DNA from: an uncultured Gammaproteobacteria bacterium
GTDB taxonomy: Bacteria > Pseudomonadota > Gammaproteobacteria > JBGSLN01
DNA length: 64,000 nt
Reading direction: 5' to 3'
NCBI GenBank assembly: GCA_963748135.1
Contig: CAVVHY010000012.1
Coordinates: 24,390 to 88,389 of the forward strand
How positions within the stretch are numbered: the stretch's first letter is position 1; every line of letters begins with the position of its first letter. Shown one piece after another: positions 29,394-50,573 of this stretch. Below the pieces are notes generated by a model. The model saw nothing but the letters and a program-made list of their open reading frames with translations. It searched no databases and was not told where the DNA came from. A program made the position numbers and the translations under genes.

Positions 29394-29522
29394 TTCCTAA
29401 TTAAGACAGTTATTCAGGTAATTTTGTAACCTATTACTGTCGAGTTTCGTCAAAATTTCGCCAAGAACAAAATTAGCACAAGCCCTGTTATTCATAACTT
29501 TTTGATTTATATAACTAAAATT

Positions 29523-29570
29523 TGTACCGGTGCGCCGAATCAAACAGCGGACCTACTGATTACGAATCAG
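29523..29570 (-). repeat. att-like 3' half of tRNA-Thr(CGT), copy A (degenerate)
   Basis: CTGATTCGTAATCAGTAGGTCCGCTGTTTGATTCGGCGCACCGGTACA. No D-arm or 5' acceptor strand. Confidence 0.8.
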
Positions 29571-30069
29571 ATCGAACATTTGACTATTTAATTCAGCACC
29601 TTCACTCCACCACCATTACAGTGTCTTCGTCACTACTACGAGCTGATCCGCCCCAGTGCACTGCATCGGTACTCTCACCCTCATGAAACGAATCACTTGA
29701 ATTTCTCCCTTAACATCAGAACAACTGGTTCCCGTAGTTCCATGGAAAAGCCTAAACAAGAGTCACGCCACCTCTATGCCGGACAACGTCCACCCAGAGC
29801 TCAGATTAACCGGTAGACTTATCCCAACAGAATGTAGAGCCGCTGGTTTTGGTGTCAGTTTGGTAGCTTACGACTCTTGAACAGTGATTCACTTTCGTTT
29901 GTCTCTCTTGCTCTTACCTGCCCAAGAACGTGTCTTGGGATTTTTCCACAACGCTCACGACCTCTGCTCCTTACTTAACAGAACCCGCATGTGGTGGTTT
30001 GAAGCCAGCCTCTGATAGCCGACTCCGGCGGGCCTTCCGCCATCTTTTCCATAGCTTGCTACGGCACAC
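29571..30069 (-). mobile_element. Group II intron 5' fragment (domain I to just before the RT start), copy 1
   Basis: Begins GTGTGCCGTAGCAAGC at 30069, colinear with copy 2. EBS1-like loop CTCTACATT within stem CAGCGG/CTGTTG. Confidence 0.85.
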
Positions 30070-30150
30070 CTACAATTTTGCTACATAGCAATAATTAGGC
30101 AAGTTCAGCCTTTGTAAGGCTGATATAACTTATTGATTATTGATAGAATC

Positions 30151-30197
30151 TGGTGCCGGTGCGCCGAATCAAACGGCGGATCTACTGATTACAAATT
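30151..30197 (-). repeat. att-like 3' half of tRNA-Thr, copy B
   Basis: AATTTGTAATCAGTAGATCCGCCGTTTGATTCGGCGCACCGGCACCA. Shares ~130 bp of right flank with copies C and D. Confidence 0.85.
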
Positions 30198-30342
30198 AGG
30201 CAGACTCTGGCTAGTAACTATATGTTTTTTATATGTTTCTGTGAATTTAAGAAATGGTCAAAACTGCTTATTCGCGTCTAATAAAATCAATAAGATACAG
30301 AAGCATTTCGCCATGTATATTTTGAGTCCGCTGGGTACATTA

Positions 30343-30520
30343 TCCTAGAATCGGCAGTTGAAATCGTAGCGAGAGCGCTTAAGCTAATGAATCTACATGT
30401 GATTTTTGCAAAATTTTTTGAAGCAGTACTCACCCGTACGGTGAAAAAAATTTTGCAAAAATCGCATGTAGATTCAGACGATTAAGTGCTCGTAGTAGAT
30501 TTCAACTGCCGATTCTAGGA
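30343..30520. repeat. 178-bp long imperfect palindrome (MITE/REP-like)
   Basis: TCCTAGAATCGGCAGTTGAAATC...GAATCTACATGTGATTTTTGCAAAATTTTTT-loop-AAAAAATTTTGCAAAAATCGCATGTAGATTC...GATTTCAACTGCCGATTCTAGGA. Confidence 0.9.
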
Positions 30521-30609
30521 TTATAAGCATATCTGGAACATTTATTTCTTGTTTATAAAAAAGCAGGTAGGGTGACACAGTTAGGTGAACGCTCTCGTAA
30601 ACTCAAGGG

Positions 30610-30793
30610 CATATCAGGCCAAATCGTAAGGATCATAGGGAGCTTTATCTTATTGAAGAAGCGCTAAAAGCTCAGCATGCGAACTACGAAACAGTTAAGG
30701 CCCTACGCCATGACAGAGCCAAACCTTTCTGGGGTGCCTTGAAAACTTATCTTCAAGAAAAGTCACTCAACGTGCCGACCAAATGCAAAGTGG
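30610..30793 (+). mobile_element. Probable IS66-family transposase internal fragment, interrupted by IS256
   Basis: ELYLIEEALKAQ...ALRHDRAKPFWGALKTYLQEKSLNVPTKCKVG resembles the IS66 LYxIE...R...P...P.S..G segment. Confidence 0.45.
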
Positions 30794-31378
30794 GATCAAG
30801 TCCAAAAAGTGCTGTAAGGTCGCATTCTCCAATCCCCTAAAATTAGGTTAAAGTAATAACGTTATCTAGTTTACCTTGTTCGTTGATTTCATTTTTCCAT
30901 TGCCAATATTCAGTCATATCAAAATAATGGATAGCGGAATGCCATTCATCATATTCTTCAACGAGTAATGCTCCAATGAGTCGTTCAGCGGCGGCTTCAT
31001 TCGGAAATATACGAATAACCCGTCGTCTGCGTCGAATTTCTTGATTCATACACTCGGCTAAGTTTGTGGTGCGTAGCCGTTGTCGATACCGCTCAGGGAA
31101 GATTAATATGGCAAGGGCTTACTTCTAGTCCGCTCTCAAGACAAACCATGGCTCGTTTCGCTTTCTTCTCATAGGTTGCGATTAAGTCTTTTGCCAATCG
31201 TCTTGCCGTGTCAATGTTAGGGGCTTGAAAAATGAGTTTTAATTCGCTGGCCAGTGGCTTTTTTAAATGATGAGGATAATGACCTAAGATATTACGCATA
31301 AAATGCGTTTGACAACATTGCCACTGCACGCCCTGAAAATGTTTTTTTAAGGCATTCACGGTCATCAGAAATGAATTT
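30794..31378 (-). mobile_element. IS256-family remnant: frameshifted transposase C-terminal half plus right end
   Basis: ISDD..., WQCCQTHFMRNIL, LRTTNLAECMNQEIRRRRRVIRIFPNEAAAERLIGA. End TTACAGCACTTTTTGGACTTGATC. Confidence 0.88.
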
Positions 31379-31380
31379 GA

Positions 31381-48220: not shown

Positions 48221-48369
48221 GATTATAATCCTTCATAATGTATTACTTTGTCAATTTTTACCTCAGCGATGAACTCGTTCATTGATTGAAACTAGATAGA
48301 TACCAATCCTCGGCCTATCCATTTCAAGAAAACTCATCGGAGTATGTTTAAAATGTTAGCATGCCAATC

Positions 48370-48385
48370 TTAAACCAACATTAAG
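48370..48385 (-). promoter_or_regulatory. Candidate PmrA-type box upstream of the F-box gene
   Basis: CTTAATGTTGGTTTAA fits cTTAA-N2-TT-N2-cTTAA with one mismatch. The AT-rich background makes a chance match possible. Confidence 0.35.
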
Positions 48386-48632
48386 AACGGTGACGAACAG
48401 CGGTATCGAATCTTGAATTGTCGCATTCTGCAAACAAACAGCATGGTCGGCTCTTGAATTACAGCATATTGCAAAGAATTAACTCAAAATAAAAGAATTA
48501 CACTTTTGTATTTTAGGTAACATTTGCGTCGCATCTTGCGTAATGAGTTGAGCAATATAAAATGCAGTGGAGAAATTATGAAAAAGTTATCCTGCTAGCT
48601 TCGGCCCCATGCCAATTTGCGAAACGCGGCAA

Positions 48633-48745
48633 TAATCTTCCCGCGTTTTAGCAGACACTTTACTTTACATTTTACGCAGCACATTCAACATCAATGGGTG
48701 CCTTGTAGTCAATAGCAGAATGTATCCGCTGACCTTCTATAGAAA
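48633..48745 (-). mobile_element. IS3-family right-end remnant
   Basis: ...QRIHSAIDYKAPIDVECAA* (integrase-core C-terminus) followed by GTGTCTGCTAAACGCGGGAAGATTA. Confidence 0.55.
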
Positions 48746-48756
48746 TAGATACTGCT

Positions 48757-49887
48757 TTATTTAAATAATTGCACATATTTATCAAACACAAAAATCCTAT
48801 TTCTCTTATAACCGGTTACCTCTTCAAGTATTTCTAATTTTATAAAATCATCAATAAATCTCAATGCCGTTGGCAACGTTATAGAGAACTCCTCTACAAT
48901 ATCTTGGCTTTCAATAATAGGGTTACTAAACAAATAATTTAAAAGTTTATGAGCCATTTTTGCTCTTGCACCTAAAACCAATATTTTATTTTCATATTTA
49001 GCTCTTAAAGCAATTATGGATTTAAATGTCTGTATTGAATTTTCGGAGGTCGTTCTAACTCCTTCCAAGAAAAACTTGAGCCATTGCTTCATGTTATTAT
49101 GTGTTCTTACACGCGTTAAATTGTCATAGTACAGTGATTTATGTTTTTCGAAGAAATCTGACAAATAAAGTGTTGGCTTTTCAAGCGCCTTTTTGCTAAC
49201 CAAGTACAATGTTATCAGTAAACGACCTAACCTACCGTTACCATCCAGGAATGGGTGGATTGTTTCAAATTGGTAATGGGCAATAGCTATTCTCAACAAC
49301 CGTGGTACAGGATGGGTTTCATTATTTATAAATTGCTCCAAATCTTTCATTAACTCCGGCACATCGTCATGATAAGGAGGTACAAATACAGCATCATTTA
49401 GGCTCGCACCACCAATCCAGTTTTGACTTTTACGAAAAGTACCTGGCTGTTTATGTTTTCCTCGAACACCATTCATAAGAATTTTATGGGTTTCTTTAAG
49501 CAACCTACCTGATATTGGCAGTTTGTCCAAAGCGTTAATTGCATAATTCATTGCAAGTATATAATTTTGCACTTCTTCCCAGTCATCCCTTTTTTTTGGG
49601 TCAATGTTTTCAAATTTCTGTAATGCTTCTTCGATGTTAGTTTGAGTACCCTCAATACGACTACTGGATGTCGCCTCCTTTTTGACATGCATTTTAATAA
49701 AATAATCTACATCGGGTATGAGCTGTGAAAATGCATTAAGCTCCCCAAGCTTGTTGGTAGCCTCCTCTAAAAGCAACACCAAGCCAGTATCATCGAACTG
49801 CCACTCATGGTCTATCTCGGATGGCATAAAGCTCTTGTATCTATATTGCTGTTTATAATCACCTGACTTATACTTGCTCAGCTCCAT
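48757..49887 (-). CDS. Fic-family protein (class II, N-terminal inhibitory motif, C-terminal wHTH)
   Basis: HPFLDGNGRLGR catalytic motif. SSRIEG fits (S/T)xxxE(G/N). Confidence 0.95.
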   Translation of the reverse strand: MELSKYKSGDYKQQYRYKSFMPSEIDHEWQFDDTGLVLLLEEATNKLGELNAFSQLIPDVDYFIKMHVKKEATSSSRIEGTQTNIEEALQKFENIDPKKRDDWEEVQNYILAMNYAINALDKLPISGRLLKETHKILMNGVRGKHKQPGTFRKSQNWIGGASLNDAVFVPPYHDDVPELMKDLEQFINNETHPVPRLLRIAIAHYQFETIHPFLDGNGRLGRLLITLYLVSKKALEKPTLYLSDFFEKHKSLYYDNLTRVRTHNNMKQWLKFFLEGVRTTSENSIQTFKSIIALRAKYENKILVLGARAKMAHKLLNYLFSNPIIESQDIVEEFSITLPTALRFIDDFIKLEILEEVTGYKRNRIFVFDKYVQLFK

Positions 49888-49956
49888 TCTATATACCCTA
49901 ACCCATTGTTAAGAAAGAATTAATCCCAAGGATTCTCCAATTATAAGTATAAAAAC

Positions 49957-50032
49957 TTATAATTAAATAAATTTGAGTTTTTTTAATTATAAAACATTAT
50001 AATTAAATTTTCATCAAAAATTTTAATTATGA
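49957..50032. promoter_or_regulatory. Two tandem 11-14-11 inverted-repeat operators upstream of fic
   Basis: TTATAATTAAA-N14-TTTAATTATAA and TTATAATTAAA-N14-TTTAATTATGA, with a 40-bp period. Confidence 0.55.
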
Positions 50033-50169
50033 ATATTCTTACTTAAAGGCATATATACCCTCATCTCAAAATCATGTGTAATTCTGGTGTAATCATGCCA
50101 AGAAAATGGGGAAAGCCCCAGGATCAGCCTTTCAAAGGCCGATATAACTTATTGATTATTATTAGAATC

Positions 50170-50216
50170 TGGTGCCGGTGCGCCGAATCGAACGGCGGAC
50201 CTACTGATTACGAATT
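50170..50216 (-). repeat. att-like 3' half of tRNA-Thr(CGT), copy D
   Basis: AATTCGTAATCAGTAGGTCCGCCGTTCGATTCGGCGCACCGGCACCA: anticodon loop, T arm, acceptor 3' strand and CCA. Confidence 0.9.
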
Positions 50217-50573
50217 AGGCAGGCTTTGCCCGCTAACTCTATGTTTTTTAATGATTTCTCTGGATTTGGAAATTGGCCAAAGTTGCAGGTTCGGACTTAA
50301 TAAAATCAATTAGTTACATAAGTCATTTCGCCAAGTACATTTTAAGACCATTGGATGCATTTCGGTCACATTAGAAATTTTAACTTAATCGATCACAATC
50401 TATTTCCAAAGAAATTTACCACTTTGACCCTATGAACCATCGCATGCAATAGCTCAAAGTTAACCTAATGCACCCAAGTGTTGTCTTATATTAACCTGAA
50501 TATTGACCATATATCACAAGGTAAATATTTGTCTAACATGTATACTAATAAGCTCTAGTCATAAATAACTATT

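Follow-up and report, generated by a model that had tools for sequence, protein, structure and literature searches.

Four tRNA-Thr(CGU) 3' halves as probable attachment scars of a tandem island array in an uncultured gammaproteobacterium

Introduction

How does a bacterial genome come to carry four 3' halves of one tRNA gene, all on the same strand of a single contig? This question is raised by a 64-kb window of an uncultured gammaproteobacterium (64,000 nucleotides of contig CAVVHY010000012.1, assembly GCA_963748135.1), in which a first-pass annotation had pointed out four partial copies of a tRNA-Thr(CGU) gene, here called halves A, B, C and D from left to right. We refer to the contig that holds the window as C12, and to other contigs of the same genome as C14, C15, C4 and so on; positions given without a contig are those of the window. 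The genome is a bin of 49 contigs, with a size of 2.2 Mb and a completeness of 55%, in which unmerged overlaps between contigs are present.

Our analysis indicates that the four halves are very probably attachment (att) scars in a tandem accretion array, left at the tRNA-Thr gene by elements with a lambda-type integrase and excisionase (Int/Xis), and that the array now consists mostly of islands resembling cis-mobilizable elements (CIMEs). It is a further example of the well-known pile-up and decay of islands, and involves no new mechanism.

Results

Four 3' halves point to one intact tRNA gene

ARAGORN detected no tRNA gene in the window. The genome contains one tRNA-Thr(CGT) gene, which is intact and located on C14 (complement 9387-9462). 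When the whole genome was searched by BLAST with this gene, four partial copies were recovered, all of them on the minus strand of C12 and inside the window, confirming the coordinates, the strand and the start at the anticodon loop given by the first-pass annotation (Table 1). A profile search of the whole genome with nhmmer revealed no further decayed halves or arms, and BLAST found no 5' half of tRNA-Thr anywhere in the genome.

Mismatches were counted over positions 31-76 of the intact C14 tRNA. Their number rises from D through C and B to A (0, 1, 3 and 4), a gradient that fits the tandem accretion suggested earlier, with successive arrivals at the intact tRNA. In B, C and D the bases 5' of the identity block are GCCTA, as against AACTG in the tRNA, which puts the exchange 3' of position 30, at the anticodon loop, TTCGTAA, or beyond it. 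In half A, identity with the tRNA extends 3 nt more in the 5' direction (CTG) than in B-D. A pattern of four such copies is far beyond chance.

An integrase and an Xis-like gene adjoin the intact tRNA

Next to the intact tRNA lies a convergent frame of 351 amino acids (aa), int (C14:8171-9226), whose 3' end is 160 bp downstream of the tRNA gene. Its product matches Phage_integrase and the lambda Arm-DNA-bind_1 domain (PF09003, 22.7 bits versus a cut-off of 22), and its residues 2-345 align with phage lambda Int (PDB 1Z1B residues 12-353, 5J0N and 1Z1G; E ~9e-33), with counterparts of the catalytic R212, K235, H308, R311, H333 and Y342 all present. The arm-binding domain PF09003 occurs in most of the 120 homologues listed, and the closest among the matches listed share 52-59% identity. 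These features identify the C14 protein as a lambda-type (heterobivalent) tyrosine integrase. Directly upstream of int there is a 65-aa open reading frame (ORF), whose conserved counterparts (46-66% identity) hold the same place next to three homologous integrases in other assemblies, and which we read as a putative excisionase (Xis-like) gene. On the other side, upstream of the tRNA, a pilin-like ORF (N-terminal MQQRTRGFTLIELMIV, read by eye) is located in DNA of ~40% G+C; the tRNA thus appears to lie where the core chromosome ends.

The genome therefore contains an intact tRNA-Thr(CGT) gene with the same 3' half, next to which lie a lambda-type integrase and an Xis-like gene. This agrees with the earlier proposal that the halves are att-type duplications made by a tyrosine integrase crossing over at the anticodon loop. 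The cognate integrase adjoins the junction at the intact tRNA, and between the two lies the same arm as at A and C.

The arms resemble those of a phage attachment site

Every half, like the intact tRNA, is followed within ~15-25 nt (in tRNA orientation) by AATCAA(T/A)(A/G)AGTTA, which fits the established IHF consensus WATCAANNNNTTR. The window contains 13 matches to this consensus, 6 of them at fixed positions in the arms, and we consider the arm sequence AATCAATRAGTTA a candidate IHF site.

The halves fall into two types by their left flanks, as had been noticed before: A and C are 88.6% identical over 79 nt, and B and D 89% over 46 nt. The type-1 flank, found at the intact tRNA, C and A (85-90% identity between the A and C flanks and that of the C14 tRNA), continues to tandem TTGGCGAAA(T/C) boxes with 11-bp spacing: C14 has three, C has two, and A has one exact and one degenerate copy. 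Past its boxes, the C14 arm runs into the int stop codon. The arm at A matches this stretch between the intact tRNA and the int stop codon; the int gene itself is absent, and an ORF fragment with only a helix-turn-helix (HTH) domain (29226-29393) takes its place. The arm at C is cut off after two boxes, and no integrase is present beyond. The type-2 flank, found at D and B, carries terminator-like hairpins (z -3.4 and -4.5) and zero arm boxes; the portion common to D and B is only 50124-50169 of D. This flank would stem either from the terminator native to the tRNA or from a second lineage of elements.

On their upstream side, B, C and D share an arm of ~145 bp, with 73-84% identity between copies. 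It carries one TTGGCGAAAT box ~110-130 bp from the core, degenerate in B, and in C and D an inverted IHF-consensus site beside the box. The first-pass annotation had rightly seen this right flank as common to B, C and D, and had ended it after ~130 bp at TTTCGCCA, which falls ~40 bp short of its actual end. Half A has no such shared flank; a group II intron fragment adjoins it there instead. All five exact TTGGCGAAA sites in the window lie inside arms and on the same strand as the halves, and we predict that the boxes are Int-binding sites.

A gene remnant ending in ...LKMNLAK* or ...LKMYLAK* had also been proposed in this flank. We rejected this candidate: in D, the youngest copy, the ...LKMYLAK* frame is open for just 15 codons, the frame in B has no stop, and the apparent ...LAK* is conserved arm DNA whose TTGGCGAAAT box is read as codons (TTG GCG AAA = L A K).

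A model of repeated integration at the tRNA gene

Our model suggests that mobile elements would repeatedly have integrated, site-specifically, into the single tRNA-Thr(CGT) gene, leaving its 3' halves behind. The recombinase would be the lambda-type heterobivalent tyrosine integrase, with the small Xis-like protein as its helper, and crossover would occur at or 3' of the anticodon loop, inside the 46-bp identity block that restores the tRNA. One arm of the attachment site would comprise the core, the IHF-like site, the tandem TTGGCGAAA(T/C) boxes and the 3' end of int, in a layout like that of lambda attP; the other would comprise a single box and an inverted IHF-like site ~110-130 bp from the core. 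Each newcomer would enter at the intact gene, pushing the older elements, each closed by a tRNA half, outward. Such displacement would give the gradient of decay, D < C < B < A.

The islands between D and C and between C and B would have lost int and xis and been eroded, as indicated by an IS256 remnant, a miniature inverted-repeat transposable element (MITE) and a group II intron fragment. To move, they would need Int and Xis in trans, and would most plausibly do so in a composite with the element occupying the junction at the intact tRNA. Given Int and Xis, recombination could occur between the tRNA and D, the tRNA and C, the tRNA and B, and C and B. D and C are not expected to recombine by themselves, because one side has no boxes. 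Excision of every segment in trans, as originally envisaged, is therefore plausible for C-B and for composites starting at the intact tRNA, and fails for D-C, which has no boxes on its tRNA-proximal side. Both the order of these events and the present-day mobility of the islands are what we infer from the array.

A same-family relative, G004, carries a tRNA-Thr(CGT) gene and, 10.2 kb away, a direct repeat of its 3' half, which has the same TTCGTAA loop as its start and continues for 17 nt beyond the end of the tRNA. This suggests that the anticodon-loop sublocation is a recurrent target. Among tRNA integration sites, those with crossover in the anticodon loop, where the stem halves act as core sites, form a classic class. 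No homologue of the C14 integrase is present on the G004 contig, and among five genomes checked in the host order this integrase was found only in the present one. A search for the tRNA 3' end plus flank in metagenome and genome collections revealed no tRNA-Thr-like sequence in the matches checked (2 from metagenomes and 6 of 33 from genome collections); as far as their printed sequence starts go, these eight look G+C-rich, as chance matches would. The other 27 of the 33 are records titled with unrelated taxa, mostly actinomycetes and betaproteobacteria.

Several observations weigh against this model. The type-2 flanks at B and D have neither arm boxes nor an integrase. Half A is without the shared arm, and its match to the tRNA extends 3 nt beyond those of B-D; it may come from a truncated tRNA/attL junction rather than from an attR junction. 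Beside the three nearest homologues of the integrase (three contig sets) there is no tRNA and no tRNA-Thr half, so that the site specificity is read from this genome only. Finally, the right end of C12 overlaps C15, which carries a tRNA-Arg, and not C14 with its tRNA-Thr; the first 750 bp of C14 are just 77% identical to the matching part of C12.

Segments between the halves

No integrase-family match (PF00589) was found anywhere on C12. The segments have a G+C content of 35-38%, compared with 40% for the C14 core. Their first description as successive islands holds for C-B (8.5 kb) and D-C (11.5 kb), which contain no integration or transfer genes and keep a half at both ends, as CIMEs would; only C-B has arm boxes on both sides. 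The 0.6-kb A-B segment is a rearrangement scar and not an island: it consists of 46 bp of type-2 flank, ~35 bp of unique sequence and the truncated 5' part of a group II intron. This intron ends before its ORF, with no reverse-transcriptase ORF and no match to domain V/VI even at E 0.1, and only the D1-D4 model matches, short of a complete ribozyme with domains I-VI.

Table 1. Features of the tRNA-Thr(CGU) array and its surroundings (window coordinates).
Feature	Position	Strand	Description
Half A	29522-29567	-	4 mismatches including loss of CCA; most decayed
Half B	30151-30196	-	tRNA positions 31-76; 3 mismatches
Half C	38712-38757	-	1 mismatch
Half D	50170-50215	-	0 mismatches; 46/46 identical to the C14 tRNA
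Type-1 (P'-like) arm at A	29389-29521	-	IHF-consensus 29495-29507; TTGGCGAAA 29456-29464; TTGACGAAA 29445-29453
Type-1 (P'-like) arm at C	38633-38711	-	Two exact TTGGCGAAA (38635-38643, 38646-38654); IHF-consensus 38685-38697
Type-2 flank at B	30105-30150	-	IHF-consensus 30126-30138, then hairpin; no arm boxes
Type-2 flank at D	50100-50169	-	IHF-consensus 50145-50157, then two terminator-like hairpins; no arm boxes
Shared (P-like) arm at B	30197-30341	-	Most diverged; degenerate box ATGGCGAAA 30306-30314
Shared (P-like) arm at C	38758-38903	-	Exact TTGGCGAAA 38867-38875; inverted IHF-consensus 38846-38858
Shared (P-like) arm at D	50216-50362	-	Exact TTGGCGAAA 50326-50334; inverted IHF-consensus 50304-50316
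Group II intron 5' fragment	29578-30069	-	GTGTG start; Rfam D1-D4-2 match 29916-30041, 80.5 bits; fills almost all of A-B
C-B island	30197-38711		8.5 kb; no integrase
C-B: palindromic MITE	30339-30524		188 bp; directly against the end of the B arm
C-B: IS256-family transposase fragments	30843-31365
C-B: RCC1-repeat protein	31381-33261
C-B: AAA_14 ATPase	35474-36151		Truncated
C-B: second group II intron fragment	36112-36854		45 codons of reverse transcriptase; cut off against the truncated AAA_14 gene
C-B: AbiEii/AbiEi pair	37045-38492
D-C island	38758-50169		11.5 kb; no integrase
D-C: AAA_14/DUF4143 ATPases	39139-40392 and 46035-47300
D-C: MFS fragment, PQ-loop gene, TPR protein, GyrI-like protein
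D-C: LuxR-type regulator	44897-45655
D-C: F-box protein	47438-48220
D-C: Fic protein	48757-49887
Start of conjugative element	50216-64000		Part within the window
AvrB-like ORF	50574-51824
MobC-like ORF	53191-53811		Weak match
Coupling protein	53822-55537
TraF-like peptidase	55781-56101
TrbI/VirB10	61761-62972
VirB9	62950-63891
VirB8, VirB6/TrbL, TrbJ, VirB4, VirB3, VirB11, LexA-like repressor			On C12, past the window

The two islands resemble CIME-like passengers with effector-like and defence genes; C-B also holds several proteins of unknown type. To the left of A, beyond the HTH-only fragment, there are further accessory, effector-like genes (an Ulp1-like protease, a fusion of nonribosomal peptide synthetase (NRPS) and NOD-like receptor (NLR) type, RCC1, GGDEF and LuxR), and no outer boundary of the whole region was found. 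In 40 relatives, DNA similar to the islands was seen as scattered gene-level matches only, with no syntenic locus.

Several repeats were observed in these segments. The two intron fragments belong to one family, being ~74% identical and having 16 nt of upstream exon in common (TGTAGCAAAATTGTAG), which suggests the same homing-site preference for both; a more distant copy of the family lies on C25 (~86.1-86.5 kb). The MITE has many copies in the genome (88-94% identity) and is near full length on 17 of the 49 contigs. A 70-bp near-perfect palindrome (ACGGGGTCAAGTCTTGAC...GTCAAGACTTGACCCCGT) occupies five spacers of D-C (40481-40551, 41464-41538, 43449-43515, 45879-45946 and 47324-47395) and has a few further copies on C44, C4, C26 and C3. 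Since the genes between the palindromes point both ways, these repeats are not like integron attC sites. An AAA_14 ATPase block of ~860 bp is duplicated with 89% identity (35277-36130 and, beside C, 38941-39799), and most of the TPR protein gene is duplicated with 98% identity (C12:21107-22207, just left of the window, and 42294-43394). Both cargo duplications are recent.

A conjugative element to the right of D

Right of D, a P-type conjugative gene set extends from the window to the end of C12 over at least 32 kb. Genes for mating-pair formation and a coupling protein are present, as in an integrative and conjugative element (ICE), together with LuxR-type and HTH regulators. No relaxase family was recognised in this element, in which the MobC-like ORF is a weak match. 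The ORF at 50574-51824, beside D, is one of two of 416 aa (the other is at 6003-7253) and has a weak AvrB/XopAH-like match (Pfam E 0.003; NCBIfam E 3e-5, below the cut-off); it may encode a Fic-fold effector-like protein at the very end of the conjugative element. The element also contains an Rfam match to 6S RNA (59507-59680, 51 bits). This 6S-like family has four copies in the genome with 90-95% identity: 59480-59700, 41310-41464 (in the D-C island, beside the PQ-loop gene), C4:57555-57738 and C33:38245-38423.

Where the conjugative element ends depends on how the contigs are joined. The intact tRNA and the integrase had been expected outside the window, probably to the right; they do lie outside, on C14 and not on C12, and the expected side is not borne out by the right end of C12, where C12:104353-106463 equals C15:1-2112 (99.95% identity over 2112 bp). 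Several other contig pairs overlap in the same way, and no exact end-overlap join between C12 and C14 was found. C15 then carries a module paralogous to C14:1-9226 (response regulator, kinase, 424-aa homologue and xis) and ends in a different, split integrase beside tRNA-Arg(ACG). The far end of the conjugative element may be a tRNA-Arg junction.

The genome has at least two sister conjugative elements, with backbones 89-90% identical (C4:51764-67998 versus C12:76280-94597), and three or four int-proximal modules (C14, C15, C13 and C44) attached to different tRNA genes. C14 and C15 start within 3 nt of one homologous point, suggesting that a module boundary lies there or that the assembly was interrupted by a repeat.

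Discussion

If the halves are att scars, can anything in the array still move? The conjugative element right of D could form an active composite that excises with the intact tRNA junction and is able to carry D-C and C-B along. We consider this possible, though on balance unlikely. The perfect identity of D with the tRNA, the exact boxes and IHF-like sites kept at C and D, the intact int and xis on C14 and the near-complete P-type transfer gene set beside D all speak for it. Set against these, the contig with the transfer genes overlaps C15 and its tRNA-Arg module and not C14, the element by D may be a hybrid, with no one integrase able to excise it, and a relaxase has not been recognised.

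A linked pair of ideas can also be considered: the type-2 islands would be a satellite lineage depending on the Int and Xis of type-1 elements, and the conjugative element by D a hybrid of tRNA-Thr and tRNA-Arg sisters. We regard the pair as improbable. What type-2 islands have in common with the int-bearing type-1 elements is limited to the core and the distal arm, and dependence on the latter elements would explain why the flank types alternate strictly. The hybrid, if real, would be anchored in the tRNA-Thr system at one end and in the tRNA-Arg system at the other, and both arrays would be locked in position. The alternative to a hybrid is that the assembly crosses a shared repeat by an arbitrary route and that C14 is the true partner of D. 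The box motif, common to D and C14, would place these two together by att logic; the assembly overlap of 2112 near-identical bp joins C12 to C15.

It is also conceivable that the unit of arm, half and flank was spread as a cassette, by segmental duplication or homologous recombination within the accessory region, rather than by independent integrations. The flank types do alternate strictly from the intact tRNA to A (1, 2, 1, 2, 1), the AAA_14 block beside C recurs inside C-B, and intron fragments occur in C-B as well as next to A. In the rest of their cargo the segments are unrelated, however, the arms diverge in step with their distance from the tRNA, and the repeat boundary is the anticodon loop, as integrase crossover predicts, recurring in a relative with a different island; we therefore find such spreading very unlikely. 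That the halves are pseudogenes of duplicated tRNA-Thr genes or an artefact of assembly, as an incomplete, fragmented bin with unmerged overlaps might invite one to think, is scarcely credible when a single contig holds all four copies, each unlike the others, when B, C and D break off at the same 5' point and share a 145-bp arm of non-tRNA origin, and when the genome has no 5' halves.

Integration and accretion at the tRNA-Thr gene thus remains our preferred reading. Under it, the array charts the way in which effector-like (RCC1, F-box and Fic) and defence (AbiE) genes are collected and retained at one tRNA hotspot by an uncultured bacterium that is apparently host-associated, and gives a testable att-site model, with core, IHF-like sites and TTGGCGAAAT boxes, for a lambda-type integrase on a conjugative element. 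In practical terms, it allows island borders and dead intron and insertion sequence fragments to be annotated. The locus also flags a possible recombination or assembly conflict between two sister elements. In addition, a 6S-like RNA is apparently carried on mobile elements in this genome.

Comparison with known systems

[quoted passage not shown] As in these tandems, successive site-specific integrations share one target, older elements have lost their integrase and transfer genes while keeping their att sites, and the array is bounded by direct repeats of the 3' end of the target. The present array differs in that its target is a tRNA-Thr in a Gram-negative, probably intracellular bacterium, its type-2 islands lack the integrase-proximal arm, and its mobility is a prediction.

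Legionella pneumophila provides a comparison for the conjugative element: ICE-beta-ox, of 65 kb, is flanked by 43-bp repeats in a tRNA-Arg gene (PMC4010831). Both are conjugative elements based on type IV secretion that carry cargo, with a duplicated tRNA 3' segment at their flanks and a host with eukaryote-like effector genes. The tRNA and the host order (five genomes sampled) are different, and the element described here is stacked with several decayed islands.

A parallel also exists within the same genome. C4 carries three tRNA-Arg(ACG) 3' halves; the adjacent transfer region is a paralogue of that to the right of D, with 89-90% identity, and a profile of the tRNA-Thr core plus flank gives weak matches at these halves. 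The same IHF-like AATCAATAAGTTA follows the intact tRNA-Arg on C15. The tRNA is nevertheless a different one, and the C15 integrase is of a different type, with no TTGGCGAAA boxes near it.

At the level of the attachment site, the best comparison is phage lambda, whose attP the layout of the array would parallel. The alignment of the C14 integrase with lambda Int covers its full length and takes in the arm-binding domain and the complete catalytic set, and int is preceded by an Xis-like gene. At its 3' end, int adjoins an arm whose three tandem boxes recall P'1-P'3, and IHF-consensus sites are found beside the core and in the other arm. The TTGGCGAAAT box is unrelated to the arm sites of lambda, and its binding by Int is a prediction. 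Whereas the lambda core lies between gal and bio, the core here lies in a tRNA gene, from the anticodon loop to the 3' end, and its carrier is apparently a conjugative element and not a phage.

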